A stretch of 64,000 nt of DNA from Deltaproteobacteria bacterium (GCA_016192705.1 JACPTQ010000014.1:15503-79502), one strand, 5' to 3'; positions 4,027 through 49,920 are shown, counted from the first letter of the stretch. Numbers and translations: made by a program. Notes: a model not told the origin generated them from the sequence alone.

Positions 4027-6144
4027 TTACATCTCTGCTGATGCGGGAGTCGTGTGACCCTTCGCGCGTGCGAAGAGCGCTCGGCCGCCCGCGGCGATCG
4101 TGCGACGGAAAAGGACGAGAACGACGGCCGCGAGGAAACCCAAGACAGCGCTGAGAATCACGAGGGCGCCCGACGATACGAGGAGAACGCGCACCGCGCG
4201 GGGTGGGTCGCTCGCCATCATCTCACGTTGAAAGTGGGTCTGGCGATTTCCGTGGGGTAAGTCGATTTTTGCCGGAAGCCCTTGGTAAGACGCGCCGTCG
4301 GCGGCGGTTGTCGTGGTGACGTCGCCGGCGGCGATTTCGGTTTTGGTGCGCTCACCCGTGAGCTTGCCGGCCGATTTTTGCCAGACGTTGCCGGACGACG
4401 TGGAGGGTGCCATGTACTTTGCGTCGCGGCTTTTACAGCCGTCGCCAAACCCGAAGACTCCGACGTTGCCAACGACGAGCGCCGCGACGACGAGACCTGC
4501 GACCGTCGCGATTCGAAGATTGAGCGTCTTCAGCCCGCGAATCCAGCCGACGAGCCAGACGATTGAAACAAGCGCGTTCGCGGCGACGATCGCTTCGAGG
4601 CCGAGAGTTGACGTCGCGGCGAGCCCGACGACCAGCGAGATGAAAACGCGTCGCCGAAGCGCGAACCCAAGCGCCGCGAGGTCTCGCTCGGTCCAGATTA
4701 AGAGAAGGATGAAAAGGAGACTCGCGGCCATCGATGGAACCCAGACTTTCGTTTCGTTGTCGAACTCTTCGTAAAGCGGCGTCCAGCCTCTTGGGTAGCG
4801 CATTTCGACGCTGCCGCTTGTCGCGGGAACGGTCACCTGCGGGAGAAAAACCGTGCCCGATGCGAAGACGGCGTTGATGCCGAATTTTTGTCGATGCTGG
4901 GTGAGCAGGTCTTGGCGGCCTTGCGATATCGGAAGCCAGAGGTTGCCGTCTTTGTTTTTCGTCAAGAGGACGGGGGCCGACTGGATGCTCGCGTAGGTCG
5001 GCTCGGACTTCATGGGGAGCGTGATGTCGGGCGCGCCCTGGTTGTCGATTGAGAGGAGCGTCTCGCCGAGCGCGGTGCCGCCGGTTGTGAGGAAGAAGAT
5101 GTGCCGAATCGCGCTGACCGCGAAGCTCGTCGTGCGGAGAGCTTGGAGGCGTGTGATCTTCCAGGCGAGCGATTCGCCGGGCGCGAGGAGGAAGGCTTGT
5201 GCGCCGCGGAATTGCGACGAAAGGCCAACTTCGCTTTGCGCGACGCGTTTCGATGCGCCGGTGATTTCGGGGCGAAGCAGCGGGTGACTCTCGATGAGGG
5301 CGTACGAAATGCTTGCGGCGACGGGCGGCGCGAACGACGGCTTCACGAGCGTCCCTTGGATGACGATCGACGACTCGCCGGGCGGCAGGTCGAAGCGGTA
5401 TCGGCCTTTGTCGACGTCGTACGTTGCGCGTGCGTCGACTTGTTGCACGGTTTCGCCGCTTGCGAGCGTGACGTCGAACGGTTGGTGCGCGCGGTTTGGG
5501 TTTCGCACGTCGAGTTGATAGCGAAAGCGCGTCTCTTCGGGGTGGAGCGAGAGACGGTAACGCGCGGTGGCGCTCGGTTTTACCGTTTCGGTCGCGGTCC
5601 CCGTTTGGCGAACAACGGAGAAGGAGCGCTCGCCGCTCGATTCGTCGGTCGCAACGAATTCGCCGTCGGTGACCGCCGACTCAACCCATAAGACGGCGGT
5701 GCTCGCGGTCATTTGTACGCGGTCGCTCCCGCTCGTTGCGACGCGGCATCGTGCGGAGAAGCGCGACGCGAGCGGTGACACGTCGAAGCGGCCGCCGTCT
5801 GAGCGCGAGACGATGGCGTCGCCTTCGCACGCGTAGAGGCGAACGCCTTGGGAGCCCGTGAGGAGAACGGCGGTCGGGAGTTTACCGGTTGCGCGTCCCG
5901 AAAATTGAATCGCGAGATCCTTCGCGCGAAACGACCCTTGAAGGCGCATGAGGTCAATGACGGTGAGCGATGGGCGCTCGTCGCCTTTGCGGAGGCGGTC
6001 AAAGTCGGCGAGGTCGAGCGTCACTTTTCCGGCGGCTGAGGAAGTGGCTGCGGTTTCGGGCATTGGTGGTTTCGGAACCGCGGCGTTCGCGTTTGAGAAT
6101 GACAGCGAGATGAGCATGGCTATGAACAAAGTCGGAGATGTCAT
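4027..6144 (-). CDS. hypothetical secreted/membrane protein (signal peptide, C-terminal TM helices)
   Basis: Internal start MTSPTLFIAMLISLSFSNANAAVP is signal-peptide-like; C-terminal third has several hydrophobic helices. No family recognised. The upstream 123 codons of the track ORF look like run-in. Confidence 0.5.
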   Translation of the reverse strand: MTSPTLFIAMLISLSFSNANAAVPKPPMPETAATSSAAGKVTLDLADFDRLRKGDERPSLTVIDLMRLQGSFRAKDLAIQFSGRATGKLPTAVLLTGSQGVRLYACEGDAIVSRSDGGRFDVSPLASRFSARCRVATSGSDRVQMTASTAVLWVESAVTDGEFVATDESSGERSFSVVRQTGTATETVKPSATARYRLSLHPEETRFRYQLDVRNPNRAHQPFDVTLASGETVQQVDARATYDVDKGRYRFDLPPGESSIVIQGTLVKPSFAPPVAASISYALIESHPLLRPEITGASKRVAQSEVGLSSQFRGAQAFLLAPGESLAWKITRLQALRTTSFAVSAIRHIFFLTTGGTALGETLLSIDNQGAPDITLPMKSEPTYASIQSAPVLLTKNKDGNLWLPISQGRQDLLTQHRQKFGINAVFASGTVFLPQVTVPATSGSVEMRYPRGWTPLYEEFDNETKVWVPSMAASLLFILLLIWTERDLAALGFALRRRVFISLVVGLAATSTLGLEAIVAANALVSIVWLVGWIRGLKTLNLRIATVAGLVVAALVVGNVGVFGFGDGCKSRDAKYMAPSTSSGNVWQKSAGKLTGERTKTEIAAGDVTTTTAADGASYQGLPAKIDLPHGNRQTHFQREMMASDPPRAVRVLLVSSGALVILSAVLGFLAAVVLVLFRRTIAAGGRALFARAKGHTTPASAEM

Positions 6145-6211
6145 AAGGCCCCCTTTCGACCAAGCAACCGATGGGTGGGCTGAGTTTAGTCCCAGCGAGA
6201 GCGTCGCGCGA

Positions 6212-6892
6212 TTAGAAATGATACCGAAGCGCGAAGGCGGGTTGCCAGGAGAGGAGAGACGAACCGATTCTGTCTTTGAGGTCCTTGGAGAGCGGGATGA
6301 GAAGGCCGACGCCAAGCGGCGTGAACGACATGTCCACGCGGTCTTGGAGCGAGAAGCCGCAACCGAATGCGGCGCGGCCCGCAAACGAATGCATGGCTCC
6401 GAGCGGCCCGTCATACTCCCAGGACTTTGACGTGCCCCAGCCGATCTGGTAGCCGGCGCCGGCTTCCGCGAACACAAAGAACGAGGTGCGCGCGGGTCGA
6501 AGAGTGAATTCAACGGTTGGGATGATGTCGACGGTGTGCAAGTCGGTCGTCACGTCGGGTTTGGTCGTGCCGCATGTACCTCCATTGCCTGAGAGATCAG
6601 GAATGCAACTGTCTATTGAAGTGGAATTCGAGCGGACTTTAATTTGGGAGTAGTTCAAATCGAGGCGTACGGCGACGCCTGAGCGTGTCGGCAAAAGGGA
6701 GAATCCCGCGGAGAGGCTCGCGCCGAGGGACGGCGGGACGTCTGGAGTTCCATAGTTGACGCTGTCTCCCGGCGCCCAAACGGTGGTCGTCATTTTGGTG
6801 CCCAAGAAGGGTCCGCGTTCCGCGAATGATGTACGCGCGGCGGTCATCGACGCGATGAAGACGGCGAGCAGCAAGTATCTCGTTCGAACCAT
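6212..6892 (-). CDS. small outer-membrane beta-barrel-like protein
   Basis: Signal peptide (MVRTRYLLLAVFIASMTAARTSFA), alternating amphipathic strands, C-terminal ..ALRYHF ending in Phe as in many OM barrels. Confidence 0.45.
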   Translation of the reverse strand: MVRTRYLLLAVFIASMTAARTSFAERGPFLGTKMTTTVWAPGDSVNYGTPDVPPSLGASLSAGFSLLPTRSGVAVRLDLNYSQIKVRSNSTSIDSCIPDLSGNGGTCGTTKPDVTTDLHTVDIIPTVEFTLRPARTSFFVFAEAGAGYQIGWGTSKSWEYDGPLGAMHSFAGRAAFGCGFSLQDRVDMSFTPLGVGLLIPLSKDLKDRIGSSLLSWQPAFALRYHF

Positions 6893-7109
6893 GAGGCACC
6901 TCACTCGTTGCCAGTATGAGACCCTGTCGCATCAGTCGCAATACCCGCGCCAATTCCCCGATGCGGAGTCTGCGCGAAATGCTTTCGTTTCTGACGCGTT
7001 CGCGGCCGCGAGTGGGCGACGCGACATGTCGCGTGACGTCGCCGTGCGACACGAATGCGACGAAGGGGCTGCCTTGACGCAATCGGCGCCGCACGAAAGA
7101 GTCGCCTCG

Positions 7110-8840
7110 ATGTTGAAACGGGTGGATGCTCGAACCCTTCTGTTGTTGCTCGCGGGTGCCCTCGCGTGCGCGGCGACTCCGGTAGCGCGTCCGCCGGAAG
7201 TGCGCGTCGGAGCGGGCGGGCAACTTCTGGGTCGGCACGCGGTCGTTGCAGCCGACAATGTGGATGCGGCGCGGATTGGGGCGGAAATCCTTGCAGCGGG
7301 CGGAAATGTTGTGGACGCGGCGGTCGCGACGGCGTTCGCGCTTGGGGTTGCGCAGCCTGAGTCGAGCGGAATTGGCGGCGGCGGTTTTCTCGTTTACTTC
7401 CGCAGCGGCGCGAGCCGAGCCGACGTCGTCGATTTTCGCGAGGTGGCGCCCGCACGCGCGCATCGAGACATGTATATGCGAAACGGGAAAGCCGTCGCAG
7501 GCGCATCGGTCGATGGCCCGCTCGCGGTTGGTGTACCGGGCGAAGTTGCGGGGCTCGTTCGCGCACATGCGCGGTTCGGGAAACTGCCGTGGGACAGCGT
7601 TGTGTTGCCCGCAGCACAACTGGCGTCACGTGGGTTTCGCGTGAGCGCGTCGCTCGCCGCTGCGCTCGCGCGGTTTGCCGATCGCGAGTTTCAGTCGAAG
7701 TGGCCGGCGTTTCGTCGCGAGTTTTTTCGCGCCGATGGTTCCGCGTATCGGGCCGGCGATTTCATGCGTCGCGTCGATCTCGGGCGAACGCTTGAACGGA
7801 TCGCGAAGGGTGGGCGCGACGCGTTTTATCGCGGCGAAACCGCGCGCGACATTACTGGAGCCGCCGGTGTGACATCGGGCGGCATTCTAACCGACGCCGA
7901 TTTGATCGCGTACGAACCGAAAGAGCGCGAGGCGATTCGCGGAAGTTACCGCGGGCGCACGGTTTTCACGATGCCACCCCCGTCGTCGGGGGGCGTCGTG
8001 CTCCTTGAGGCGCTCGCCCTCCTTGAGGTGTTCGACTTACCGGCGCTGTTTAGAGCGAACGCGTACCACCACGTGGTCACGCAGGCGCTCATTTTTGGTT
8101 TCGCCGATCGCGCGAATTTGCTTGGCGACGCCGACAGCTCGGATGTTCCGTGGCGCCGGCTCCTCACGGCGGGACACCGCGACAAGCTGCGCGCGGCGTT
8201 TGACCCAACGCGCGCAACTCCGCACCCTGACTGGCCGCGCCCAACGATCAAGCCGCGCGACGACAGCGGCACGAGCCACCTCTCGGTCATGGACGCCGAA
8301 GGGAACGCGGTCGCCCTGACGACGACGATCAACACGACGTTTGGCTCGAAAGTGGTTGTGCCGGGAACCGGCATTTTACTCAACAACCAGATGGACGACT
8401 TTTCGATCCAGCCCGGTGTGCCGAACGCGTATGGTCTCGTCGGAGGCGAAGCGAATGCGGTCAAGGCGGGGCGACGGCCTCTCTCCAGCATGAGCCCGAC
8501 GATTGTCGTTGAGAATGGGCGTGCCGTGATGGCGCTCGGCGGCGCGGGCGGGCCGCGCATTATTTCGGCGACGCTGCAAACTTTATTGAACGCGATCGAT
8601 TTGCGATGGCCGGTCGCGCGCGCGGTTGCGGCGCCGCGGCTCCATCATCAGTGGGTGCCAGACCGCGTAGGATTTGAAGCGGGGGTTGGCGATGACGTCG
8701 TTCGCGCGCTTACATCCCGCGGCCATCGAGCCGAGCGCGAGGATTTCTTCGGCATCGTTCAGATTGCAGCGCGCCGCGCGGACGGGCGGCTCGAAGCGGT
8801 TAGCGATCCGCGCAAGGGCGGCGAGCCCGCGGGTTTCTAA
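7110..8840 (+). CDS. ggt: gamma-glutamyltranspeptidase
   Basis: Signal peptide MLKRVDARTLLLLLAGALACAA; conserved autoprocessing/catalytic Thr region (..DDSGTSHLSVMDAEGNAVALTTTIN) and GGT-like N-terminal region (PESSGIGGGGFLVY). Confidence 0.85.
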   Translation: MLKRVDARTLLLLLAGALACAATPVARPPEVRVGAGGQLLGRHAVVAADNVDAARIGAEILAAGGNVVDAAVATAFALGVAQPESSGIGGGGFLVYFRSGASRADVVDFREVAPARAHRDMYMRNGKAVAGASVDGPLAVGVPGEVAGLVRAHARFGKLPWDSVVLPAAQLASRGFRVSASLAAALARFADREFQSKWPAFRREFFRADGSAYRAGDFMRRVDLGRTLERIAKGGRDAFYRGETARDITGAAGVTSGGILTDADLIAYEPKEREAIRGSYRGRTVFTMPPPSSGGVVLLEALALLEVFDLPALFRANAYHHVVTQALIFGFADRANLLGDADSSDVPWRRLLTAGHRDKLRAAFDPTRATPHPDWPRPTIKPRDDSGTSHLSVMDAEGNAVALTTTINTTFGSKVVVPGTGILLNNQMDDFSIQPGVPNAYGLVGGEANAVKAGRRPLSSMSPTIVVENGRAVMALGGAGGPRIISATLQTLLNAIDLRWPVARAVAAPRLHHQWVPDRVGFEAGVGDDVVRALTSRGHRAEREDFFGIVQIAARRADGRLEAVSDPRKGGEPAGF

Positions 8841-8882: not shown

Positions 8883-9977
8883 TCAGAGCCCCCGCGTCAT
8901 GATGAGATCGCGCAAGCTCGGCGTTTTCGCGTAGGGCGAGTCCAAACAGTCGATGAGGACCGGTTCGTTGGCGCTCACGGCTTTGACGAGGACATCGCCG
9001 CTCATGAGTTCGCGGCACGAAATCTGTCCCTTTTGAAGAGGAACCGCGAGGTAGACGTCGCGTTCCGTGAGGATGTGACCCACGGGAAGGTCGCGCGCGG
9101 CGTAGACCCCTCGAACAAGCGCGTCGAGGTACTTTGTCTCGCGATCCGTAGGAATTCGTTTTTGGTTGCCGGGCGGGCCACACATTTCCTTGACCTTCTT
9201 GAACGACCGGAACCAAACGTCGCACTGCTCAGGGTCGGTGCAGTAAGGCGAAAACGGCTTGTCCTCGGTCCGAATATCAATATGTCGCTCAAACGTTCGC
9301 GCACCCTTGGCGTACGCAATCACGATCGACGACGTCCAGTCCTTGTATTCATGCGTTGACAGGCCAATCGTGAGGTTCGGGTATCGGCCGCGCAGAAAAT
9401 CGATTTGGTTGAGCTCGAGCTCACTGTCTTCAGTCGGGTAAAGTGCGACGCAGTGGTTGAGCGCGAGCGGGATGTTCCGGTTCTCGCAGAACTTGACCAG
9501 ATCGTCGACGTCTTTGACGGACGACCCCCCGGTTGACGCGATGATGGGTTTCCGCGTCCGACCCATCTTTTCGATGAGGACCCAGTCGTTAATATCGGAG
9601 CTCGCGAGCTTCAGGATCTCAACCCCAATTTCGAGGCACGTATCGACCGATTCTTCGTCGAACGCCGTCGCCATCCGAATGCATCCGCTTCGGCGAATGG
9701 CCTCGGCCATCTCGGCGAGATGCTCCCTGGACATTCGCGTTTCCACCGTCTTTTTGATGTATCGAATGTCGTCTCGCCCGCGGAAGCTCTTGTGAACGAA
9801 CGAATCGACATCGCGGACTTGGAGTTTGATCGCCGCCCGAACGTTGTTGTATCGGACGACCTTGCTAAATTCCTGGATTATCCTGAGTCCGCGTTCGAGG
9901 CTTCCCCAGTGGTTATTGGCAAGCTCAAGTACGAAAAGCTCGTCGAAAACAGATTGGTTTACCATGGCGGACGGCAT
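8883..9977 (-). CDS. NeuB-family nonulosonic acid synthase (N-acetylneuraminate / pseudaminic / legionaminic acid synthase-like)
   Basis: N-terminal TIM-barrel motifs (FVLELANNHWGSLE.., TGGSS, ALNHCVALYPTEDSELELNQIDFL, GLSTHE, FERHIDI) and C-terminal SAF-like domain. Hand-sampled GC is about 53-57%, well below neighbours. Confidence 0.8.
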   Translation of the reverse strand: MPSAMVNQSVFDELFVLELANNHWGSLERGLRIIQEFSKVVRYNNVRAAIKLQVRDVDSFVHKSFRGRDDIRYIKKTVETRMSREHLAEMAEAIRRSGCIRMATAFDEESVDTCLEIGVEILKLASSDINDWVLIEKMGRTRKPIIASTGGSSVKDVDDLVKFCENRNIPLALNHCVALYPTEDSELELNQIDFLRGRYPNLTIGLSTHEYKDWTSSIVIAYAKGARTFERHIDIRTEDKPFSPYCTDPEQCDVWFRSFKKVKEMCGPPGNQKRIPTDRETKYLDALVRGVYAARDLPVGHILTERDVYLAVPLQKGQISCRELMSGDVLVKAVSANEPVLIDCLDSPYAKTPSLRDLIMTRGL

Positions 9978-10021
9978 TTTGAGTTGAGGGGTGGAGAATT
10001 GTCAAGTTGACGGTTTCTCCA

Positions 10022-13000
10022 CTAGTTCTCGGTGCCGGGGATTCTCGCGTTGAGCGGCGGCGCTTGGTCGGGGATGTTGTCGACGCGTATCATGCCGCGG
10101 TTGTAGCAGGTGACATAGAGTGAGCGCGCGCGACCCGCGAGCGTCGATTTGTCGAACGTCGCTGCGGCGGCGCGGCAGCCAAAGTCGCGGTCGTCGGCAA
10201 GGCGGCTCCATGTGACGCCATCGAACGTCGCGAAGACGCCGGTGTTGCCAACGGCGAAGCGCGTGCGTGGCTCGTCGGCGACGAAGACCATGTCGGTCAA
10301 GAGCGCCGAGAGTCCGCCCACGCCGTAATCGCGCTCGACCCAGGCTTCTGTCGCGCGCGACTCGGGGTTTCCATACGGGGCGCCGACGAGCGTTGCGAGG
10401 TTTTCGAGCGAAGCGACGCGCGTCCAGGTGCGGCCGCCGTTTTGCGTGATTTTGATCCCGGCGGGGCACGCCCCAGAGCCCGGGTCGTCGATGTAGACCA
10501 TCGCGCTGTTGTACGGGTTTACGAAAAAGCTTGAGACCGCGCACGCTCCGTTGGTGCCAGGGCTCGCCGTGTTAACGACCTTCAAGACGCTCGTCCAGCT
10601 GCCCATGTTCGCGATTCGAAGGAGGTCGCCGCTGCGCGTCCAAGCGTAGTTGACCGGATTCGCGTGCCCGCCGGCTGGTTGGACGATCGCGGTGTCGGCT
10701 GGAAGTCCGCTCGCGACGACACCCCACCGGTTGGTGTAAGGCGTGCTCGGGCAGGCCGCGGTGTTTCGATCGGCGTCGATCACTTGCGCGCGGAAAAGCG
10801 TGACGCCGTCGGGCGCCGGACGGCTGCCATTCGGCTCATAGTAATCGAGCATCACGAGATCCGCGGCAAGCGGGCAGCCGGAGACCGTGCCGGTCGTTGT
10901 GGGAATTTCGGCCGGTAGCGTCTGGATGACGTGGCGATTTCCCCAGCCCCAGATGGGGGGCGCCGACGTTGCGCCATCGGGCGCGGCGACGAACGGCACG
11001 CTGTAGAATCGAACGCCACCGCCGATGTCGCGCGAACCGAAGGCCGGTGTACAGCCGGGTGTGTTCGAGCCGACGCACCACTGGTAAGGAGCGGTCGGGT
11101 AACGGCCGTTCGTGGCGAAGATGCCGAAGCTCGACGATCCGCGGGGGTGATCGACTTGGACGACGCGATCCGCGGCGGCTGGGTGGGCGTCGGCCATGAA
11201 GCGGCCACAGTCGCCGCACGTTCCCGTTTCGCCGGTCCAGTTTGTTGCGGGGTCGGGGTTGGAGGAGCTGTCCCAACTTGTGGGCGGTGAGTCTGGGTTT
11301 ACGTAGAAGTAGTCGTTGTCCTGCGTGCCGGAGTAGTGCGCGGGGCGAGACGCGCCTGGGCGTGAAAGCGTCGCACCGCCCGTCATCCAAAGTGTCCCGA
11401 GACCGCGGCCGGATGCGGGTTTTGTCGCGAAAGGCGAGAGGTTGCAACCGGGTGTGAGGAGGCCGAAGAGCGTTTTCGGGCACGTGCGGATCGTTCCTGC
11501 GGGCGAGGCGTAAAGGCCGCCGTCGTTCGCGACGAACGCGCGGCCCGCGGTGTGGATGAGGCTCGCGTTTGCGCAGGCGGCGCGGCGCGATGCGGCGCAC
11601 CCGGGCTGGATGGCGAACGTTGCGGCGAAATCGTCCGATACGTAGACGTCGTGCGGATCGACGTGGATGAAGAGTGGCGCATCGCCTTCGGCCGGGTTTT
11701 GGCCGTCAAGGCGCGCCCAGCGGCCGAGTTGCGGCGCGGCCGGTGAGTCGATGGGGGGGAGGCCGTCATGAACGTGAACGGTCGTCGCGTCGGCGAAAAA
11801 GAGGTAAAAGCCGGTGCCGCTCGGCTTTCGCGTCGCGAGGATTGCGGGTCGTCCGGAAGGCGTCGCTTGTCCGAAGTAACTCGGCGGCGACGCGAGAGGC
11901 GATGACGCCCATCGAACGACGCGCGCGGCTGGGTCGAAGGACCCCATCCAAAGCCCGGCCTCGCCGCAGCCGAGATTCGCGGACGCGGCGGCTGGGCACT
12001 CGGCTGGCGCACCGCGGGGCGGGTTAACGGGGGCACCGCAGCGCGTCCCTTCAATTTGGCATGCGTCGAAGTACCGTGGGCCGCGCGAGGTGTTGGCGAG
12101 TGTGACGACTATCGTTCCGGGGGTTGTGGGGGGGGTGGCGAGGGCATGGGGGGCACCGGTCCAGCTGCAGCCGTACGCGCGATTGGGACCGAGGCCGAAG
12201 TTCGTCGTGAACGTCGCGCCGCTGTCGATCGAAACGGCGAATCCCGCGGCCCCGCACGCGTAAACGCGATTTCCCGTCGTCGTGCGTTCGGAAACGGCGA
12301 TGTAGTTGAGCGCGGGACGACCGCCGTTGGGGGCGCGCCCGACTTCCGTCCAGTTGCGTCCCCCATTGCGGCTGACGGCGAGCCCGCACGATCCCGCGGC
12401 GAACACGGTGTTCGGGTCGTCGGGTGCAAAGCGAACTTGGGTGACGACGGCGCCCTTACCGCAACTCGGCATGTACGTCGGCATCCACGTACGTCCCGCG
12501 TCGTTCGAAGTCCAGACGCCGCCTGCGTACGACTTGAGGAAGCCGCTGTTCTCAAAGTCGCCGGTCGCGAGGAGAACGGTCGAGCCGTCGGCTGGCGTTG
12601 GTGAAACGGCGATTTCGTTGATCTGCGAAACCCCAGGCGAGAAAAAGGGCGATGTGAGGGGGTGGCGGCACGCGACCTTCGTGTTCGCTTGGCACCAGTT
12701 CGCGCCGTAGTCGTCGGAGCGCCAGAGTCCTGTTCGAAGGCCGGTTGCGTAGAGGCGACGGCCGCTTGGCGAGCCGCTCATCGCGCGGACCGGGCCCGCG
12801 AGTGACTGTCGAGCGGGGTCGCGGGTGCGCGACGCGGGGCCGACGTCGGTGATGGTGATGCGTGGGCGCGGTGACGTCGGGGACGGCTCATGCTCGCGCG
12901 GAAGGGCGACGTGGGTTTGCGGCGTCGGGCGGAGTGCGTCGGTGCTCGCGCGCGTCTCGGGTGAGCCGTCACCACAGGCGACGACGGCGAGAAGAAGCGA

Positions 13001-13042
13001 AATCAGCTTGAGAGAAGCGGTTGTTGGTCGTCGTGATGGCAT
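10022..13042 (-). CDS. large BNR/Asp-box repeat lipoprotein (sialidase / glycosidase-like beta-propeller)
   Basis: Lipoprotein-type signal (MPSRRPTTASLKLISLLLAVVACGDG) and several Asp-box motifs S-x-D-x-G-x-T-W (WRSDDYGANW, TSNDAGRTW, SRNGGRNW, SIDSGATF, TQNGGRTW). Start chosen at the internal ATG preceding the signal peptide. Confidence 0.6.
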   Translation of the reverse strand: MPSRRPTTASLKLISLLLAVVACGDGSPETRASTDALRPTPQTHVALPREHEPSPTSPRPRITITDVGPASRTRDPARQSLAGPVRAMSGSPSGRRLYATGLRTGLWRSDDYGANWCQANTKVACRHPLTSPFFSPGVSQINEIAVSPTPADGSTVLLATGDFENSGFLKSYAGGVWTSNDAGRTWMPTYMPSCGKGAVVTQVRFAPDDPNTVFAAGSCGLAVSRNGGRNWTEVGRAPNGGRPALNYIAVSERTTTGNRVYACGAAGFAVSIDSGATFTTNFGLGPNRAYGCSWTGAPHALATPPTTPGTIVVTLANTSRGPRYFDACQIEGTRCGAPVNPPRGAPAECPAAASANLGCGEAGLWMGSFDPAARVVRWASSPLASPPSYFGQATPSGRPAILATRKPSGTGFYLFFADATTVHVHDGLPPIDSPAAPQLGRWARLDGQNPAEGDAPLFIHVDPHDVYVSDDFAATFAIQPGCAASRRAACANASLIHTAGRAFVANDGGLYASPAGTIRTCPKTLFGLLTPGCNLSPFATKPASGRGLGTLWMTGGATLSRPGASRPAHYSGTQDNDYFYVNPDSPPTSWDSSSNPDPATNWTGETGTCGDCGRFMADAHPAAADRVVQVDHPRGSSSFGIFATNGRYPTAPYQWCVGSNTPGCTPAFGSRDIGGGVRFYSVPFVAAPDGATSAPPIWGWGNRHVIQTLPAEIPTTTGTVSGCPLAADLVMLDYYEPNGSRPAPDGVTLFRAQVIDADRNTAACPSTPYTNRWGVVASGLPADTAIVQPAGGHANPVNYAWTRSGDLLRIANMGSWTSVLKVVNTASPGTNGACAVSSFFVNPYNSAMVYIDDPGSGACPAGIKITQNGGRTWTRVASLENLATLVGAPYGNPESRATEAWVERDYGVGGLSALLTDMVFVADEPRTRFAVGNTGVFATFDGVTWSRLADDRDFGCRAAAATFDKSTLAGRARSLYVTCYNRGMIRVDNIPDQAPPLNARIPGTEN

Positions 13043-13200
13043 TGGGCCTCCTTGCTGTGGAAAGCCGAAAAAGCAAACGCGGGACCGGCCAGAATCCCGC
13101 GTAACATCGCGCACGTGACGCGCGACGAAGTGCGATCGTTGATCGCGAATGGGGGAGAATTGATCGGGGTTGGGCGCCGTCGCGAATGCGCCCGTCGGCG

Positions 13201-14223
13201 TCAGGCGCCCACGACGAGCACGACTTTCCCGATGTTTCGCCGTTCTTGAATGTAGCGGTGCGCCAGGGAGGCCTCGCCCATCGGAAAGGTTCGGTCGACG
13301 CGTGGACTCAGCTTGCCGTCGCGCACCCACGCGAGAATCTGGTCGAGGTCACGCGCGAGCGAGTCGGGGTTTTTGATGGCGAAGTGATTCATGTTGATGC
13401 CGAGCACGGCGCGGTTTTGGTTCATGAGCGAAACTGGATGAAACCGGGGCATACCGAGGAGCGTTTTTAATGCGCTCCAGATGCTGCGCCGCTCGCCCGT
13501 GACCATCGACGACACGCCGTACATCACGAGGCGGCCGCCGTGTTTGAGAATGCGCGCGCCCTTTTTGAGCGACGAGCCGCCCTGCGAATCGAGAACGACG
13601 TCGACGCCGACGCCATTTGTGAGGCGCATGACTTCGGCCTCGAAATCTTGCGAGCGGTAATCAATAACGTGCGCAACCCCTTGTCCCACAAGGAAATCGC
13701 GCTTGGCCGCCGACGCCGTGCCGATCACCGTCGCGCCCGCGATTCGACAAAACTCGATCGCCGCAAGCCCGACGCCGCCAGCGGCCGCGTGCACAAGAAC
13801 CGTCTCTCCCGCCTTGACGGTCGTCGCACCGAACAGCCCGCGGTACGCCGTCAGGTAAACCACGGGAATTGACGCCGCTGTCGCATCGTCGCATCCGTCC
13901 GGAATGGCCCGCACCGCGCGTGCATCGGCAACGGCGAGCTCCGCGTAGCCCCCGAACATGACGGGCGCGACCACGCGAATCCCCGCGGGAAGCCCGTGCT
14001 CGGGGAGCGCGTTGACCAGCGTCCCCGCGACCTCGTACCCCAGAATCATCGGGCGTGGCGGCGCATCGGGGTAAAGCCCAAGCCGCGCGACGATGTCCGC
14101 GAAGTTGACGCCCGCGGCGCGGACGCGAATCAGCGCCTGGCCCGCTTTCGGCACGGGATCGGGCGCGTCGGCGACCTCGAGTCGCTCGGGCGGACCGAAC
14201 TTGCGAACGACCACAGCTTTCAT
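13201..14223 (-). CDS. NAD(P)H-dependent quinone oxidoreductase-like protein (MDR superfamily, Zn-independent)
   Basis: MKAVVV..GxxE..V.AAGVNFAD.. and Rossmann AAGGVGLAAIEF motifs; start ATG 14223 overlaps the stop of the upstream UbiA gene (ATGA). Confidence 0.8.
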   Translation of the reverse strand: MKAVVVRKFGPPERLEVADAPDPVPKAGQALIRVRAAGVNFADIVARLGLYPDAPPRPMILGYEVAGTLVNALPEHGLPAGIRVVAPVMFGGYAELAVADARAVRAIPDGCDDATAASIPVVYLTAYRGLFGATTVKAGETVLVHAAAGGVGLAAIEFCRIAGATVIGTASAAKRDFLVGQGVAHVIDYRSQDFEAEVMRLTNGVGVDVVLDSQGGSSLKKGARILKHGGRLVMYGVSSMVTGERRSIWSALKTLLGMPRFHPVSLMNQNRAVLGINMNHFAIKNPDSLARDLDQILAWVRDGKLSPRVDRTFPMGEASLAHRYIQERRNIGKVVLVVGA

Positions 14224-15179
14224 AAATAAATGATGATCGCCGTGGCACCGCCCCATGCGAGCGCCGACAAAACGATATGCGGGTCGGTCAAGACGACGCG
14301 CGTCGGGCTCCCACCTTTGCCGTGTCGGTGCACGAGATAGAGGTAGCGAAAAATCCCATACGCGACGATCGGCAGCGTAAAGACGAGGTTGGGGCCAAGG
14401 CGTTCGACCGTGTGGTGATCGAGCGTGTAGAGCGCATATGAAACGAGCGCGAGCGCGGCGGTGATTGCGGTGAGCTGGTCGAGGAGGCTGACGTCGTATT
14501 CGCCGAGGATTTGGCGAAAGCGAGCCGCCGTGCCGTTCCCCTCGGTGATTTCACCGCGACGTTTAGCGACTGCGAGGAAGAGCGCGAGGAAGATCGTGCA
14601 TGCGAGGAGCCACGACGACGCCGCGACGTCGATCGCGATGGCGCCCGCAAAGACGCGAATGACGAAGCCGAGCGAAACGATAAACACGTCGAGGATAACG
14701 ATCTCTTTGAGCTTGAGCGAATACGCGACATTGAGGACGAGATAAAACGTGACGGCGAGCCCCAGCGGGACCTTGAGCGCGAACGCGCCGCCGAGCGCGG
14801 CAACCGCGAGCAGAAGCGCAATCCAAAGCGCGACCGACGCCGGAACGAGCCCGCTCGCGATCGGGCGCGACGCCTTCTCGGGGTGCTCGCGATCGAAGTC
14901 GCGGTCGATGACGTCGTTCAAAAGGTAGACGGCGCTTGCGGCCGCGCAAAAAGCCGCGAAGGCGAGAGCCGCGGCGACGACGCGCCCCGAGTCGTTGACC
15001 TTCTGCGCGAAAAAGAGCGGCGCAAAGATGAACCCGTTTTTCACCCACTGGGCCGGCCGCATGGCTCGCGCAACGCCCCAGGCGACGCTCAAAACGTCGC
15101 CTCGCGCGCAATCGGGCGATAACGGTCCGCCTGCGGTTGCATCATTTGACTCACGTATGCGCGGAATGGGACTGGCCAT
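14220..15179 (-). CDS. UbiA-family prenyltransferase resembling decaprenyl-phosphate phosphoribosyltransferase
   Basis: Polytopic membrane protein with RPAQWVKNGFIFAPLFFA and the Asp-rich NDVIDRDFDREHPEK motif, as in DPPR-synthase-like UbiA enzymes. Start could be the internal ATG at 15062. Confidence 0.7.
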   Translation of the reverse strand: MASPIPRIRESNDATAGGPLSPDCARGDVLSVAWGVARAMRPAQWVKNGFIFAPLFFAQKVNDSGRVVAAALAFAAFCAAASAVYLLNDVIDRDFDREHPEKASRPIASGLVPASVALWIALLLAVAALGGAFALKVPLGLAVTFYLVLNVAYSLKLKEIVILDVFIVSLGFVIRVFAGAIAIDVAASSWLLACTIFLALFLAVAKRRGEITEGNGTAARFRQILGEYDVSLLDQLTAITAALALVSYALYTLDHHTVERLGPNLVFTLPIVAYGIFRYLYLVHRHGKGGSPTRVVLTDPHIVLSALAWGGATAIIIYL

Positions 15180-15187: not shown

Positions 15188-16678
15188 TTACCCTTGGGGC
15201 AGCGTTCCCGCGTCGGCGTGTTCGCGAAGGCCGAACTCTTTCATTTTGTTTTGCAACCCTTTACGCGAGATTTTAAGCAGTTTCGCGGCCCTTGTCACGT
15301 TTCCTGCGGTCGACGTGAGCGCCCGCTGAATCAGGTCTTTTTCGATGCGGAGCGTCGTCTCCTTGACGATCGCCTTGAGCGAACCCGTTTGCGGCGCCGC
15401 GCTTGCCGGCGCCATCCCCGCGGCCAACGCCGTCGCCGTTTCCGCGGCAGCGCTCGCCTCGGCACGATTCACGCGCTCGCGAAGCGCCGTAGGCAAATCC
15501 GGTAAATCAAGCCGCTCGCTCTCCGCGAAAAGAAGCGCGCGTTCGAGCACGTTTTCAAGCTCGCGAATGTTCCCCGGCCACGAATACGCCATCAGCGCCG
15601 CCATGGCCGAATCGCTCACGTCGCGGACCGACTTCTTGAGGCGCCGGTTGTACTTCTCGATGAAGTGCTGCACGAGGAGCGGCACGTCGTCCCGGCGATC
15701 GCGAAGCGGCGCGAGCGCAACCGGCACGACGTGAATCCGATAGTAAAGGTCTTCGCGAAAACCGCCCGCGGCGATGTCCTTTTCGAGGTCGCGGTTCGTC
15801 GCCGCGATGAGCCGCACGTCGACTTTGATCGTGCGCACGCCGCCGACGCGTTCGAATTCGCCCTCCTGCAGCGCGCGAAGGAGCTTCACTTGCATTTCAA
15901 GCGGAATTTCGCCGACCTCGTCGAGAAAAAGCGTTCCGCCGTGCGCGAGTTCAAACCGCCCCGGCTTCGATGTGGTCGCCCCCGTGAACGCCCCTTTTTC
16001 GTACCCGAACAGCTCGCTCTCCATAAGCGTCTTTGGGATCGCGGCGCCGTTGATCGCGATAAACGGTTTGTCCTTGCGCGCACTCTCGGTGTGCAGCGCC
16101 TTCGCGATGAGCTCTTTGCCGGTGCCGCTTTCGCCCGTGATGAGCACCGTCGACGGCGTGTCGGCGACTTTGCGGATGATTTGAAAAACATCCTGCATCT
16201 CGCGCGATCGCCCAACGATATCGAACGCGCCCGTTGTCACCGGCGCCGCTTCGCCCCCCGACGTCAGTTCGCCCGCGATTGCCGGTTCCGCTTGGACCTC
16301 CTGCGCCGACAGCTCGGCCGTCGCAAGCGCCTTTTGAACGACCTGCACGATCTCCTCTTGCTCAAACGGTTTTGTGATGTAGTCGAACGCGCCGGTTTTG
16401 AGCGCCTCAACGGCGGTGTCGATGGTGCCGTGCGCCGTGATGACGATGACCGGCAACCCCGGCGATTCGGCGCGCGCGCGCTTAAGAACTTCCATTCCAC
16501 CGATCCCCGGCATTTTGAGGTCGGTGATGACCACCTGAAACTCGTGTTCGCGCATCAGCGAGAGCGCCTCGGCGCCGTCGGCCGCGGCCCAGACTTCGTA
16601 GCCTTGGCGTCGCAGAATAGCCGAGAGCACCTTTCGCAGATTGAGCTCGTCGTCAGCGATGAGAATTTGCGCGTCCAT
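15188..16678 (-). CDS. sigma-54-dependent response regulator (REC + AAA+ + Fis-type HTH; NtrC family)
   Basis: REC (ILIADDE..D), Walker A GESGTGKE, sigma-54 interaction GAFTGA motif, [16 protein letters not shown]-terminal HTH. Confidence 0.9.
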
Positions 16679-16704: not shown

Positions 16705-17667
16705 TCACTTGCCGGGCCGTGACCATAACACGACGCGATTTCTCCCGGCACGCTTCGCGACATAGAGCGCCTCGTCCGCGAGCTGCAACAAATCGATCGC
16801 CTCCTCCGCGGGGTGAAACGGGAACGCGGCGATTCCGACGCTGGCGGTGATGCGCACTTCAACCTCGCCATTTTTAAAGCTGTGCGCTTCGAGCTTCGCG
16901 CGCACGCGCTCGCCGGCTTCGAGGATCCAATCGGGCGCATTCGTTGAGCGAAGGGGCGCGCCTTGTGCGTCGATCGCGGGCATAACGATGACGAACTCTT
17001 CGCCGCCGTATCGCGCGATGATGTCGGTTTCGCGGATCGCAGCCTTAAAAAGGTCCGACGCTTCCTTGAGAACAAAGTCGCCGACGAGGTGACCGAACGA
17101 GTCGTTCACATTCTTGAATTCGTCGATGTCGATGAGCGACACAGCGAGCTGCGTCCCATAGCGGCGCGCGCGCAAGAACTCGTACGCCAGCCGCTCGAGC
17201 AGATGTCGGCGGTTGTAAAGGCCCGTGAGCGAATCGGTCACCGCGAGGTCGCGGAGGCGATTCGTCGTTTCTTGGAGGAGGTCGTGCTGCTCTTTGACCT
17301 GCAAGTGGTTTCGAATGCGCGCCTCGACTTCGGTGATGTCGAACGGCTTTTGGAGGTACCCGTCGGCGCCGCGCGAGAAACCGCGGATGCGATCTTCGGT
17401 GTCGGCGAGCGCGGTGACGAGCAAGATGGGGAGATAGCCGGCGTTTGGGTCGCCTTTTAAGAGGCGGCAAACTTCGAATCCGTTTTGGCCCGGCATCAAG
17501 ATGTCGAGGAGAATGAGGTCGGGGCGCTCGGAGCGCGCGACGCGAAGCGTTTCGTCGCCGGTACGCGCGGTGACGACTTGATAGCCGGCGAGCGTGAGGG
17601 CTTCACGCAAAACATCGAGAGCGGTTTCGTCGTCGTCTGCGACGAGGATTTTCGGCGGCTTGTTCAT
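16705..17667 (-). CDS. response regulator with GGDEF diguanylate cyclase domain
   Basis: N-terminal REC (KILVADDDE), C-terminal GGDEF domain with RYGGEEF active-site motif. Confidence 0.85.
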   Translation of the reverse strand: MNKPPKILVADDDETALDVLREALTLAGYQVVTARTGDETLRVARSERPDLILLDILMPGQNGFEVCRLLKGDPNAGYLPILLVTALADTEDRIRGFSRGADGYLQKPFDITEVEARIRNHLQVKEQHDLLQETTNRLRDLAVTDSLTGLYNRRHLLERLAYEFLRARRYGTQLAVSLIDIDEFKNVNDSFGHLVGDFVLKEASDLFKAAIRETDIIARYGGEEFVIVMPAIDAQGAPLRSTNAPDWILEAGERVRAKLEAHSFKNGEVEVRITASVGIAAFPFHPAEEAIDLLQLADEALYVAKRAGRNRVVLWSRPGK

Positions 17668-17771: not shown

Positions 17772-18304
17772 GCAAGATTTTCGTGGGGCGGGCGGGATTT
17801 GGGCTTGCTCCGGCTCGCGGAAGTCCTCGGGTCTGACATGAAATGTGAGTCTCCACAGAATGAATCAAACATCATGAGAACGGCAATCCCACGCCCCATC
17901 GGCACCTCATCCCCTGCGCAAAGGTGCGCTGCGGGCTGCGCGGCACTGCCGCGACACCAAGTTCGGTCGAGCACAACCTGCATTTGCAACTCCGAGCACG
18001 CAAAGGTCTCGGGTGTTCCGTCGCCCTCGCGATTCTGTTCGCGTCGGCAAGCCACAGGCTTGCCAACGATTGCTCACAGAATACGCGACCCGGAGCAAGC
18101 CCAATCGCCGCCCGCCCAACCAGAATCCAGCTGTTTCCCTGGAGCGGCGGTTCAAGGACTTGGGGGTCGATCGAACGCTGGCCGACACCCAACGGGTGAA
18201 ACCTTCGTACCGCCCTCAAACCTAAAGAATACGTCCCCGGAAAGCGGCACCTGCCGACGCTACGCGCGGAAGATGACTGGTCGCTTAACCGGGGATCGAG
18301 GCGA
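17772..18304. mobile_element. MITE-like interspersed repeat, copy A (non-coding, mosaic)
   Basis: About 145 bp shares near-identity with 21019-21163 and 44524-44670. Imperfect terminal inverted repeat (left ..TTCCCGGATAACGG.., right ..CTTAACCGGGGA). Flanked by a perfect 11-bp direct repeat TCAGCGACAAA at 17761-17771 and 18305-18315. No conserved reading frame among copies. Confidence 0.7.
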
Positions 18305-31548: not shown

Positions 31549-32517
31549 TTGAGGCCAACCGAACGTCGGTTGCTGATAACGGGGGCAAATGGCTTTGTTG
31601 GTCGGCATCTTTGTGCCGAGAGCATCAAGCGGGGATGGCAAGTCCGGGCCGCTTTGCGTTCGGCGGCTTCGGTTTGTTCGGGCGCCGAATCGGTCGTTGT
31701 TGGTCAAATTGATGAGCAAACCGACTGGACCAACGCACTTCGCGACGTGGATACGATTATCCACCTTGCCGCACGGGTGCATGTCATGCGCGACGACGCC
31801 GATGATCCGCTTCGCGAGTACCGCCGGTTCAATACGCGCGCCACGGAGCGATTGGCACGTTGCGCGGCCGCGGCGGCCGTGAAGCGGCTTGTGTTCGTGA
31901 GCACAATCAAAGTGAACGGCGAGGAGACGCTCGGTGGGCACCGGTACAAGGAGAGCGATGCGCCCGCTCCGCAGGATTCGTATGGAGTCTCGAAGTGGGA
32001 AGCGGAGGAGGCGATTCGCCGCGTCGCCGAGAAAACGAAACTGCAGGCCGTCATTGTGCGGTCGCCTCTGGCGTACGGCGCAGGCGTGAAGGGTAATTTC
32101 AAACAGATGCTCAACGTGCTGGCGAGAGGGATTCCGCTGCCCTTCGCGTCTGTGCGCAATTTGCGCAGTTTCGTCTCGGTCGGAAATCTGGTCGACGCGC
32201 TCGTTGCTTGTGCGTCACATCCCGCGGCGGCCGGGCAAACCTATCTCTTGAGCGATGGCGATGACATTTCAACCCCCGAGCTCCTTCGTCAGTTGGGCGC
32301 CGCGCTGGGGCATCCGGCTCGCCTGCTTCCCTGCCCTCCCGCTTTGTTGAGGCTCGTGGGTCGTTTGACCGGCCGGTCAGATCAGGTCGAACGCCTGCTC
32401 GGGTCGCTGCAGATCGACAGCGATAAGATCCGCCGCGAACTTCAATGGGCGCCGCCCGTCAACTTGCAAGACGGATTGCGGCAAACGGCGGAGTGGTATC
32501 AAAGGACGGATCCGTGA
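31549..32517 (+). CDS. NAD-dependent sugar epimerase/dehydratase (extended SDR)
   Basis: TGANGFVG Rossmann motif, YxxxK (YGVSKWEAE); TTG start in the ORF track, exact start uncertain. Confidence 0.75.
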   Translation: MRPTERRLLITGANGFVGRHLCAESIKRGWQVRAALRSAASVCSGAESVVVGQIDEQTDWTNALRDVDTIIHLAARVHVMRDDADDPLREYRRFNTRATERLARCAAAAAVKRLVFVSTIKVNGEETLGGHRYKESDAPAPQDSYGVSKWEAEEAIRRVAEKTKLQAVIVRSPLAYGAGVKGNFKQMLNVLARGIPLPFASVRNLRSFVSVGNLVDALVACASHPAAAGQTYLLSDGDDISTPELLRQLGAALGHPARLLPCPPALLRLVGRLTGRSDQVERLLGSLQIDSDKIRRELQWAPPVNLQDGLRQTAEWYQRTDP

Positions 32518-32528
32518 TCCCCTACGCA

Positions 32529-33491
32529 CCCATGGTCGCCGTCGTGGTCACTTTGCTCTTCACCACCGTTATTTTACGCACGGGGTTGGGCAAGAAGGTC
32601 CAAGATGTTCCGAACGCGCGCTCGCTGCATGTCGCCCCCATTCCGCGCATCGGTGGTCTCGGCATCATGGCTGGCCTGTTGTGCGGTTGGGCTTTGATGA
32701 TAACGTCGCTGTCGTGGTGGGTCGTGGTGCCCCTCATCGGGTTGTTCGGTGTTTCGCTGCTCGATGATATGCGCGGGTTGCCAGTCTACGCGCGTTTGCT
32801 CGCGCACCTTGGCGCCGCGGCGATTCTCGTCGGTGGCTCCTTTCTCTTCACCTCCAAAGACGTTGTCATGGCGGTGGCGACGTTTTTGTTTTCGGTGTGG
32901 ATGACGAATCTTTTTAATTTCATGGATGGCTCAGATGGATTGGCCGGCGGAATGGCGCTCTGTGGCTTCGGGCTGTATGGAACGGCCGCTCTGATGAGGC
33001 AGAACGATGCGTTTGCGATGCTGAATTTCACCATCGGCGCGGCGGCCCTCGGGTTTCTGTTCAAGAACTTTCATCCTGCGAAAGTCTTTATGGGCGATGC
33101 GGGCTCGATTCCGCTCGGGTTCCTTGCGGCGGCCATGGGGTTGTGGGGATGGCAAGAGGCGGTTTGGAGCGCCTGGTTCCCGCTGCTCATCTTCTCACCG
33201 TTCATCGTCGATGCCAGTGTGACGTTGCTTAAGCGGGGCGTGCGTGGGGTGAAGATCACGGAGGCGCATCGTGAACATTATTATCAACGTCTGATTCAGA
33301 TGGGCTGGGGACATCGTAACGTTGCGCTGGTCGAGTATGCCGTGATGCTGGGCGTTGGGGTGTCGGCGCTCGCCGCCTTGAATCAAGAGTTTCCGTTGGT
33401 CGTATTGGCCGTGTGGAGCGGCGTTTATGCTCTGCTCATGTTGTCGATTGATGTCGCGTGGAGACGGTTTGAACGGGAGCGGAATGCTTAA
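32529..33491 (+). CDS. polyprenyl-phosphate N-acetylhexosamine-1-phosphate transferase (WecA/WbpL/MraY family)
   Basis: Polytopic membrane protein with NLFNFMDGSDGLAGG and VFMGDAGS motifs. Confidence 0.8.
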   Translation, partial: PMVAVVVTLLFTTVILRTGLGKKVQDVPNARSLHVAPIPRIGGLGIMAGLLCGWALMITSLSWWVVVPLIGLFGVSLLDDMRGLPVYARLLAHLGAAAILVGGSFLFTSKDVVMAVATFLFSVWMTNLFNFMDGSDGLAGGMALCGFGLYGTAALMRQNDAFAMLNFTIGAAALGFLFKNFHPAKVFMGDAGSIPLGFLAAAMGLWGWQEAVWSAWFPLLIFSPFIVDASVTLLKRGVRGVKITEAHREHYYQRLIQMGWGHRNVALVEYAVMLGVGVSALAALNQEFPLVVLAVWSGVYALLMLSIDVAWRRFERERNA

Positions 33492-45355: not shown

Positions 45356-45802
45356 ATGACTCTGGATCTCGCAACGGTTCAATCGATGATGGAAGGTGGT
45401 CTCCCCTACGTGAAGAAGCTTGGCGTCAAGCTGGAGGAGGGCGGTGGGAATCGAGCGTTTCTGCGGCTTCCGTGGGACCCAACGAATACGAACCACGTCG
45501 GTACGCTTCACGCGGGGGCGCTCTTCACGTTTGCCGAAACAGCGGGCGGCGCCGGGATCCTTTTCTCGTTCGACCTTTCGAAGGTTCGCCTTCTCGCGAA
45601 GCAAGCGACGATCGAATACAAGCGCCTCGTCACCGGCGATGTGACAAGCGAAGTCGTTGTACCGCCTGCGGATGTCGCGCGCGTCATGGCTGAAGTCGAT
45701 GCGGGTGGGCGTGCGACGTACGATTTACGCGTCACGCTGAAGGACGATTCCGGCGAAGCCGCGGCGCTCGTCTCGATCACGTACCACTTCAAAAAACTTT
45801 AG
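45356..45802 (+). CDS. hotdog-fold acyl-CoA thioesterase (PaaI/YiiD-like)
   Basis: About 148 aa with ..NHVGTLHAGALFTFAETAGG.. hotdog core; strong SD GGAGG 7 nt upstream of ATG 45356. Confidence 0.6.
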   Translation: MTLDLATVQSMMEGGLPYVKKLGVKLEEGGGNRAFLRLPWDPTNTNHVGTLHAGALFTFAETAGGAGILFSFDLSKVRLLAKQATIEYKRLVTGDVTSEVVVPPADVARVMAEVDAGGRATYDLRVTLKDDSGEAAALVSITYHFKKL

Positions 45803-49907: not shown

Positions 49908-49920
49908 GACGGAGGCTAGG

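Follow-up and report, generated by a model that had tools for sequence, protein, structure and literature searches.

Probably three adjacent units rather than one glycan pathway: a predicted polyprenyl-phosphate phosphoribosyltransferase, a propeller lipoprotein and a NeuB-like gene in a deltaproteobacterial gene cluster

Do genes that lie in series on one strand, and whose families can all be linked to glycans, form a single pathway? The question is raised by positions 8883-15179 of a 64,000-nt stretch of DNA, hereafter the window, from a Deltaproteobacteria bacterium (GCA_016192705.1, JACPTQ010000014.1:15503-79502). Four minus-strand genes follow one another there, encoding a UbiA-superfamily protein, an MDR oxidoreductase, a lipoprotein with Asp-box repeats and a NeuB-family protein. 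Directly upstream of them lie genes for a response regulator with a receiver and a GGDEF domain (REC-GGDEF) and for an NtrC-type sigma-54 activator. A sequence-only reading of this DNA had assigned all four genes to one surface glycan or glycolipid pathway. Our analysis of the block and its flanking genes bears out the open reading frames (ORFs) and the family of each product, which are supported by Pfam and NCBIfam profiles, and leads to a different view of their organization. The region is rather probably composed of three juxtaposed units, namely a regulator-UbiA-MDR operon, an exported propeller lipoprotein and a lone NeuB-like gene, and does not form one pathway.

The six genes are transcribed in the order REC-GGDEF, NtrC, UbiA, MDR, Asp-box and NeuB-like. 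Co-directionality of the four genes by itself is no more than expected by chance, and coupling is indicated by spacing only for REC-GGDEF, NtrC, UbiA and MDR. The two regulator genes are separated by 26 bp, the NtrC gene is separated from the UbiA start codon by 8 bp, and the UbiA and MDR genes overlap by 4 bp, sharing ATGA (...ATT TAT TTA TGA / ATG AAA GCT). With the NCBI call of the UbiA protein, which has 290 amino acids (aa) and starts approximately 29 codons downstream, near 15092, the gap after NtrC would be about 95 bp. The MDR and Asp-box genes are 158 bp apart, and 44 bp separate the Asp-box and NeuB-like genes. The overlap, the 44-bp gap and the two regulators immediately upstream (recognized by their Pfam domains and motifs) had all been noted in the sequence-only reading and are as it described them.

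Both wider gaps contain candidate signals. A scan of the MDR/Asp-box gap revealed a terminator-like hairpin (13102-13077) located 35 nt before the Asp-box start codon, which makes it a possible transcriptional boundary. The predicted folding of the gap contains the hairpin stem, and the region as a whole is unexceptional (z = -1.1). Given this score, and since the corresponding hairpin in a close relative differs and has no T-run, a conserved terminator or attenuator was rejected. The Asp-box gene is preceded by an AAGGAGG ribosome-binding site. The gap before the NeuB-like gene is occupied by a promoter-like sequence that agrees with the consensus in 10 of 12 positions, three such sites being found in the region compared with 1.3 expected. 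No Shine-Dalgarno sequence precedes either candidate ATG of the NeuB-like gene.

The only close relative recovered is represented by two short contigs of JGI metagenome 3300045072, L021 (2.2 kb) and L025 (7.5 kb). L021 holds the 3' end of the NtrC gene (37 codons) and, after an 8-bp gap as in the window, UbiA and MDR genes whose products are 86% and 89% identical to those of the window and which likewise overlap by 4 bp; it ends approximately 150 bp after the MDR gene with AGGAGG-N5-ATG, which resembles the start of the Asp-box gene in the window. L025 carries an Asp-box homolog (80% identity), and the convergent gamma-glutamyltranspeptidase homolog (75%) lies only 9 bp from the Asp-box stop codon, with no NeuB-like gene between the two. 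Hence the regulator-UbiA-MDR unit is conserved in the relative, and its adjacency to the Asp-box gene is probably conserved as well. The two genomes differ here by an indel, the NeuB-like gene having been either inserted in the window or lost in the relative. The proposal of a common pathway thus fails a criterion set by the sequence-only reading itself, co-occurrence in related genomes: NtrC-UbiA-MDR is retained in one relative, which has no NeuB-like gene at the corresponding place. We treat the NeuB-like gene as a separate unit because it is absent from that position in L025, its usual partners are absent from the window and it has a promoter-like site of its own.

More distant genomes point in the same direction. 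We examined the flanks of UbiA homologs with 41-50% identity in 80 metagenomic loci (L027-L106), and none of the 80 has an MDR gene, a NeuB-like gene or an Asp-box homolog beside it. Together with the missing NeuB-like gene in L025, this speaks against the proposal that the four genes constitute one surface glycan or glycolipid pathway. The features of the region are listed in Table 1.

Table 1. Features of the block and its flanks, in the order of transcription on the minus strand, with the convergent downstream gene last.
Feature	Position in window	Strand	Basis
REC-GGDEF response regulator	16705..17667	-	Pfam Response_reg + GGDEF, E 9e-43; opens the tightly spaced unit
NtrC-type sigma-54 enhancer-binding response regulator	15188..16678	-	Pfam Sigma54_activat E 3e-74, Response_reg, HTH_8
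UbiA-superfamily polyprenyl-phosphate 5-phosphoribosyltransferase (DPPRS/PPPRS-like), 319 aa, predicted	14220..15179	-	NF008977, PDB 8J8J
MDR oxidoreductase, non-zinc, quinone-oxidoreductase/VAT-1 type, 340 aa	13201..14223	-	Pfam ADH_N + ADH_zinc_N
Terminator-like hairpin, 10-bp stem then T-run	13077..13102	-	intergenic scan
Asp-box lipoprotein, 1006 aa	10022..13042	-	lipobox, five Asp boxes, 25 Cys
Sigma-70-like promoter match TTGACA-18-CAAAAT	9976..10005	-	consensus match only
NeuB-family PEP-condensing (ulosonate synthase-like) gene, 364 aa	8883..9977	-	Pfam NeuB + SAF
Gamma-glutamyltranspeptidase (GGT), convergent, downstream boundary of the block	6756..8840	+	Pfam G_glu_transpept E 3e-164

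The Asp-box protein, identical to the NCBI hypothetical protein HYY84_03235, combines five Asp boxes and 25 cysteines with a lipoprotein signal peptide ending in ...LLLAVVAC. A word-indexed search returned only five homologs, and an exhaustive one yielded 51 cluster representatives at E<=1e-30, which are approximately 35-44% identical and 850-1300 aa long. The Pfam Sortilin-Vps10 domain matches 25 of the 27 aligned family members. An AlphaFold2 model built from this 27-sequence alignment (mean pLDDT 75.8, pTM 0.81) was compared with the PDB by Foldseek, and the top 21 matches are all GH74 xyloglucanases (E ~2e-20, target-normalised TM 0.52-0.59), with no sialidase among the top 50. The family profile ranks PDB sequences in the same way: GH74 enzymes are found at E 9e-20 (C. 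thermocellum Xgh74A), and sialidases at 1e-6 or worse, covering one or two blades. A single-sequence search against the PDB gave no match, and the information comes from the predicted fold and from the profile of the family. On both, the protein is predicted to have the tandem seven-bladed beta-propellers of GH74 and to represent a lineage-restricted family of GH74/sortilin-like propellers.

The two-propeller architecture with Asp boxes is shared with GH74 xyloglucanases and with Sortilin/Vps10 proteins. The window protein differs from GH74 in being only 12-15% identical, approximately 250 residues longer, cysteine-rich and lipidated, and it has no carbohydrate-utilisation context. The N-terminal catalytic aspartate of GH74 (TDIGG) aligns with a non-acidic position of the family, in a weak profile alignment (domain E 0.78), so that the pair of catalytic aspartates in the cleft between the GH74 propellers may be lacking here. 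The Asp-box repeats S-x-D-x-G-x-T-W are also found in GH33 bacterial sialidases, whose propeller is single and six-bladed, in contrast to the double propeller predicted here, and the protein does not qualify as a GH33 member. It contains no FRIP motif, only a single chance ARIP at residue 1000. The sialidase-like character that had been suggested from the Asp boxes is contradicted by the predicted GH74-like fold, the profile ranking and the lack of FRIP. As a separate observation, approximately 155 residues of the window protein (~217-371; window 12376-11929) are missing from the 80%-identical homolog (L025:457-484). This difference may reflect a gain or loss of propeller blades or an assembly artefact, the latter being considered in view of the mismatch between the window and the 5' end of L025.

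Could the lipoprotein nevertheless work with the UbiA-MDR pair, binding or processing a glycan modified from a lipid-linked pentose donor, while the NeuB-like gene is an unrelated passenger? To this arrangement we give a minor but real chance. In its favour, the three genes are co-directional, the end of the 150-bp spacer in L021 suggests that their adjacency is retained, and the hairpin between them is not conserved as a terminator. On the other hand, the relative is so close (~80% nucleotide identity) that synteny is expected by descent alone, and the 158-bp gap of the window does carry the hairpin. Further, a distant locus with an Asp-box homolog (L026) has neither UbiA nor MDR, and no Asp-box homolog accompanies UbiA in any of the 80 loci.

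The UbiA protein is very probably a polyprenyl-phosphate phosphoribosyltransferase, that is, an enzyme making a glycolipid donor. It passes the NCBIfam model NF008977, 'decaprenyl-phosphate phosphoribosyltransferase' (268 bits, cutoff 234), as well as NF008978 (236 bits, cutoff 207), and aligns end to end with Mycobacterium tuberculosis Rv3806c (PDB 8J8J, E 1e-39). A crude scan finds seven hydrophobic segments. In Rv3806c, the residues coordinating Mg2+, ribose, 5'-phosphate and pyrophosphate of phosphoribosyl pyrophosphate (PRPP) have been identified, including the 5'-phosphate site K28 and Y70 and the pyrophosphate Lys/Arg cluster R22, K87, R90 and K143 (PMC10994848). Eleven Rv3806c residues (R22, K28, Y70, N73, D74, D77, D81, K87, R90, Y138 and K143) are identical in the window protein, which carries the substitutions Q135N, Y157F and K208Q. 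The Mg2+/ribose motif N-D-x-x-D-x-x-x-D in cytoplasmic loop 1, where N73/D74/D77/D81 of Rv3806c match N247/D248/D251/D255 of Citrobacter youngae ORF15, is formed here by N88, D89, D92 and D96, which are identical to Rv3806c and invariant across 17 homologs. The PRPP-specific ligands R41, K47, Y85, K102, R105, K158 and Y153 are identical as well.

These residues also bear on a different view of the pair, according to which UbiA would be a prenyltransferase of the ordinary aromatic or quinone type, with the MDR reducing its prenylated product, in a small lipoquinone or secondary-metabolite module with no link to glycans. The MDR does fall into the QOR/PIG3/VAT-1 group, and JGI labels relatives of the UbiA protein '4-hydroxybenzoate polyprenyltransferase'. 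However, the NCBIfam models for UbiA, MenA, heme-O and chlorophyll synthases score only 16-53 bits against cutoffs above 180, whereas the DPPRS model passes. Ordinary UbiA prenyltransferases do not conserve the phosphoribose sites (PMC10994848), and the retention of these sites in the window protein argues against an aromatic prenyltransferase. We consider this view highly improbable.

Known pentofuranose glycosylation systems have three components: a polyprenyl-phosphate phosphoribosyltransferase (PPPRS), which may include a phosphatase domain, a flippase and a GT-C glycosyltransferase, with optional epimerases (PMC11127046). Examples are C. youngae O1/O2 ORF12-15, P. aeruginosa pilin arabinosylation and the mycobacterial Rv3806c/Rv3807c/DprE1/DprE2/Emb-Aft set (PMC11127046, PMC10994848). 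The window resembles them in having a full-length Rv3806c homolog that keeps the NDxxDxxxD motif together with the 5'-phosphate and pyrophosphate ligands of PRPP, and in having an oxidoreductase gene directly after UbiA, as are the DprE1/DprE2-like genes in an acidobacterial locus (L003). It differs from them in that UbiA follows cyclic di-GMP (c-di-GMP) and sigma-54 regulators and does not lie inside a polysaccharide locus, and in that the partner is a VAT-1-like MDR, which none of the 80 homologs has. Among approximately 45 larger ORFs of the window, which our partner scans covered, there is no PRP/HAD or PAP2 phosphatase, MATE/SMR flippase, GT-C enzyme, DprE1/DprE2 or SDR epimerase partner; the absence of DprE1/DprE2-like proteins and of a CMP-transferase had likewise been remarked on in the sequence-only reading. 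In L003, linked partners are easily recognized, except for a flippase. We found no literature linking DPPR synthase with myxobacteria.

The MDR protein, with its GroES-like and Rossmann domains, belongs to the VAT-1/zeta-crystallin/PIG3 branch: its best PDB match over the full length is human VAT-1 (E 5e-60), the zinc ligand is lost (GYE for GHE), and the NADPH motif reads AAAGGVG. The score with the PIG3 subfamily model, 235 bits, is under the cutoff of 297. We know of no bacterial VAT-1-like enzyme that partners a PPPRS, and since no MDR gene occurs in any of the 80 UbiA-homolog loci, the pairing is lineage-specific.

In other genomes, UbiA is followed by other genes. Of 27 scanned downstream neighbours on the same strand, 11 are DUF362 genes, the commonest kind, and three are radical-SAM genes. 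The DUF362 protein after the PPPRS-like UbiA is approximately 360 aa long (for instance, L027:8893-9999), and its domain family is placed in one Pfam clan with the LarA racemases/epimerases (PMC11770544). It may serve as an alternative epimerase acting on polyprenyl-phosphate-ribose. The acidobacterial UbiA homologs (~52% identity) occur in the order STAS, UbiA, a hypothetical protein and four GT4 genes. In an Acidobacteriaceae metagenome-assembled genome, L003:12337-20022 encodes two GT-C enzymes of the PMT_2 type, a HAD-UbiA fusion, a FAD_binding_4 protein (DprE1-like) and an SDR protein (DprE2-like); the fusion is a PRP-PPPRS like C. youngae ORF15, and the module is a complete canonical arabinofuranose-donor set immediately next to a NeuB-like cassette of the kind described below. 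Thus the position after the PPPRS gene is repeatedly taken by a redox- or epimerase-type gene, in non-homologous forms: DprE1/DprE2-like, DUF362 and, here, MDR. Because of this recurrence, we propose the lipid-linked pentose or its carrier as the substrate of the MDR.

A bolder version of this proposal makes the MDR a new auxiliary oxidoreductase acting on polyprenyl-phosphoribose in place of DprE1/DprE2, the SDR epimerase ORF13 or DUF362. The enzyme would then yield a lipid-linked deoxy-pentose or another lipid-linked pentofuranose, or else reduce the lipid carrier, and synthesis would be switched on by the c-di-GMP and sigma-54 pair. Taken as a whole, this version is distinctly doubtful.

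The NeuB-like protein has the architecture of sialic acid synthase homologs, with a NeuB TIM barrel (Pfam NeuB, 121 bits) and a C-terminal SAF domain (23 bits). GLSTHE and FERHID align with GLSDH and ERH of N. meningitidis NeuB (NmNeuB, PDB 1XUZ), the Lys and Gln of the VKHQT motif are conserved, and both the metal-binding His pair and the Lys, Gln, Ser and Thr positions that bind phosphoenolpyruvate (PEP) are aligned. These features are common to the NeuB/PseI/LegI synthases and PDB 3G8R. The window protein differs from these synthases in scoring far below the equivalog cutoffs, with 108.6 bits against 399.65 for TIGR03569 (NeuB) and 107.1 against 340.25 for TIGR03586 (PseI), and in having no partner for CMP-nonulosonic acid (CMP-NulO) synthesis or 2-epimerization. 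Neither a CMP-NulO synthetase nor enzymes for a hexosamine substrate were found among the scanned ORFs. The nearest solved structure is 3G8R (E 2e-68), a structural-genomics entry called 'probable SpsE', and the match with N. meningitidis NeuB is at E 6e-19. Hence the suggestion of a nonulosonic acid synthase homolog is upheld as far as the family and the active-site residues are concerned, and it does not extend to NeuB or PseI proper.

Homologs with 65-71% identity occur in at least five phyla, in Terriglobales, Microcystis, Actinomycetota, Syntrophobacteraceae, Rhodocyclaceae and Alphaproteobacteria, and their neighbourhoods (loci L001-L020, with counts from 14 of them) define a recurrent cassette. 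A three-domain thiamine pyrophosphate (TPP) enzyme similar to acetolactate synthase (ALS) lies within approximately 2 kb of the NeuB-like gene in 12 of the 14 loci, directly upstream of it in most, a DegT-like gene is present in 12 and a GT2 gene in 11. SDR, NDP-hexose nucleotidyltransferase, 4,6-dehydratase, and C- and O-methyltransferase genes recur as well, and in some loci a HAD phosphatase gene is translationally coupled to the NeuB-like gene. Examples of the cassette are L019:4078-12233 and L017:2670-13396. No cassette member reaches any NCBIfam equivalog cutoff. UbiA, MDR and Asp-box genes are not found among the immediate neighbours. Even in the locus of the closest relative of the protein (79% identity, L016), it is a TPP enzyme, a GT2 and methyltransferases that adjoin, without UbiA or an Asp-box gene. 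Conversely, the window gives no tblastn match to the cassette partners (TPP enzyme, HAD, SDR, DegT-like, NTP-transferase, 4,6-dehydratase, methyltransferases, GT2 and GtrA). A keyword search of the literature returned no description of this cassette or of NeuB with ALS/YerE-type cassettes, and exact-sequence look-ups of the NeuB-like protein, in both the window and the NCBI version, returned no record. The part with NDP-hexose, DegT-like, TPP-enzyme and SDR functions presumably resembles the biosynthesis of yersiniose-type branched sugars, and the cassette may represent an uncharacterised pathway for a branched or higher-carbon sugar. In Acidobacteriaceae, it and the PPPRS/DprE/GT-C set are separate modules within large polysaccharide loci, lying no more than 10 kb apart in 8 of 14 acidobacterial loci.

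The two regulators that open the first unit carry the motifs of their families. The REC-GGDEF protein retains the GGEEF active site and the RxxD I-site in its translation, and is a probable diguanylate cyclase. The NtrC-type protein has a receiver domain, an AAA+ domain with GAFTGA and a C-terminal Fis-type helix-turn-helix (HTH_8), as expected for this group of activators. No sigma-54 consensus match is placed before the UbiA, Asp-box or NeuB-like gene. One 2-mismatch match to the sigma-54 -24/-12 consensus with the correct GG-N10-GC spacing, TGGCAAGCCTGTGGCT at 18050-18065 on the minus strand, is found approximately 380 bp upstream of the REC-GGDEF start, and is not distinguishable from chance.

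We suggest the following scheme for the three units. The first would be an operon, probably of REC-GGDEF, the NtrC activator, UbiA and MDR. Judging by its catalytic residues, UbiA would transfer ribose-5-phosphate from PRPP to polyprenyl phosphate, yielding a lipid-linked pentofuranose donor for extracytoplasmic glycosylation. The translationally coupled, NAD(P)H-dependent MDR, to go by its gene position, most likely acts on the lipid-linked product; it could fill the slot that DprE1/DprE2, an SDR epimerase or DUF362 takes in other lineages, or the prenyl chain could be its substrate. Use of the donor would require a phosphatase, a flippase and a GT-C enzyme whose genes would lie beyond the 64-kb window. 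Joint transcription with the genes for a diguanylate cyclase and a sigma-54 activator would place envelope glycan modification under the control of signals. The second unit, the lineage-restricted GH74-like propeller lipoprotein, is probably a glycan-binding or glycan-cleaving envelope protein. The third would be a lone, intact gene of the NeuB family of PEP-aldol-condensing enzymes with a promoter-like site, separated from its usual cassette. Thus the glycan theme of the sequence-only reading survives in UbiA, and the unified four-gene pathway does not.

Several observations weigh against this scheme. The operon is read from gene spacing, and as the hairpin is not kept in L021, transcription could run through into the Asp-box and NeuB-like genes. 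Our view is of 64 kb, and partners of UbiA and of the NeuB-like protein could lie elsewhere in the genome. The close relative is a single one, split over two contigs, and the NeuB indel could be a deletion there. The GC content at third codon positions (GC3) of the NeuB-like gene, 0.72, is within the range of its neighbours (0.71-0.78); because of this match we leave the direction of the indel either way, and recent horizontal acquisition was rejected on composition. In the window, sigma-54 consensus matches number 17 compared with 20.6 expected, which offers no cognate promoter for the activator. MDRs of the QOR/VAT-1 type usually reduce C=C bonds or quinones rather than sugar ketones. Finally, the acidobacterial loci show that the NeuB-like cassette and the PPPRS module can be close neighbours.

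That proximity, the close spacing and common direction of the four genes and the possible link of all four families to glycans are what speaks for a single pathway, in which UbiA supplies a lipid-linked pentose and the NeuB homolog a nonulosonic or ulosonic acid, and in which the product is trimmed or remodelled by the Asp-box protein, but such a pathway is most improbable, given the syntenic site without NeuB in the closest relative, the 80 UbiA loci without any of the other three genes, the different and locally absent partners of the NeuB-like gene, an Asp-box protein that is not sialidase-like, and a cluster that has no glycosyltransferase, CMP-transferase or flippase.

The case illustrates that co-directional genes of glycan-related families need a synteny check before they are read as one pathway. 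Lipid-linked pentofuranose donors have only recently been recognised outside mycobacteria, and the UbiA-MDR pairing is a modest variation on the known PPPRS systems. If functional, it would add a new type of auxiliary enzyme to lipid-linked pentofuranose systems and, in an uncultured lineage of deltaproteobacteria, would connect them with signalling through c-di-GMP and sigma-54. A broader lead lies outside the window, in the NeuB-like/TPP cassette, whose NeuB-like subfamily, 65-71% identical across Acidobacteriota, Cyanobacteria, Actinomycetota and Proteobacteria, has no NCBIfam name.

The genes adjacent to the block encode a 7TM-HD receptor, PhoH, an 828-aa membrane protein, GGT, an Fn3 protein and others, none of them glycan-related. 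The 828-aa protein (4027-6513, minus strand) has no Pfam match and approximately six hydrophobic segments at the C-terminus. It was considered as a hidden GT-C enzyme and rejected, since the six segments are confined to the C-terminal part, no Pfam domain is matched and the gene lies beyond the convergent GGT. The syntenic ORF of the relative (L025:4931-7528, 865 aa) shows no tblastn match to it at E<=1e-5.

Elsewhere in the window, 16 kb away, plus-strand genes at 31549-35340 encode an SDR epimerase/dehydratase, a WecA-like Glycos_transf_4 protein and a PglF/CapD-like Polysacc_synt_2 dehydratase, followed by UvrC. They form a separate three-gene glycan-initiating module, the WecA-like member of which is a polyprenyl-phosphate sugar-phosphate transferase. 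A tyrosine recombinase with Phage_integrase and SAM-like N-terminal domains (47566-48711, minus strand) adjoins a 514-aa protein with three receiver domains (45799-47343, minus strand); the recombinase may mark a mobile element or be XerC/D-like. Finally, a 1095-aa protein encoded at 49855-53142 on the plus strand contains six Stig1-like Cys-rich repeats (Pfam Stig1, E 8.5e-39), and the GC content of the region, 0.66-0.68, is unusually high.

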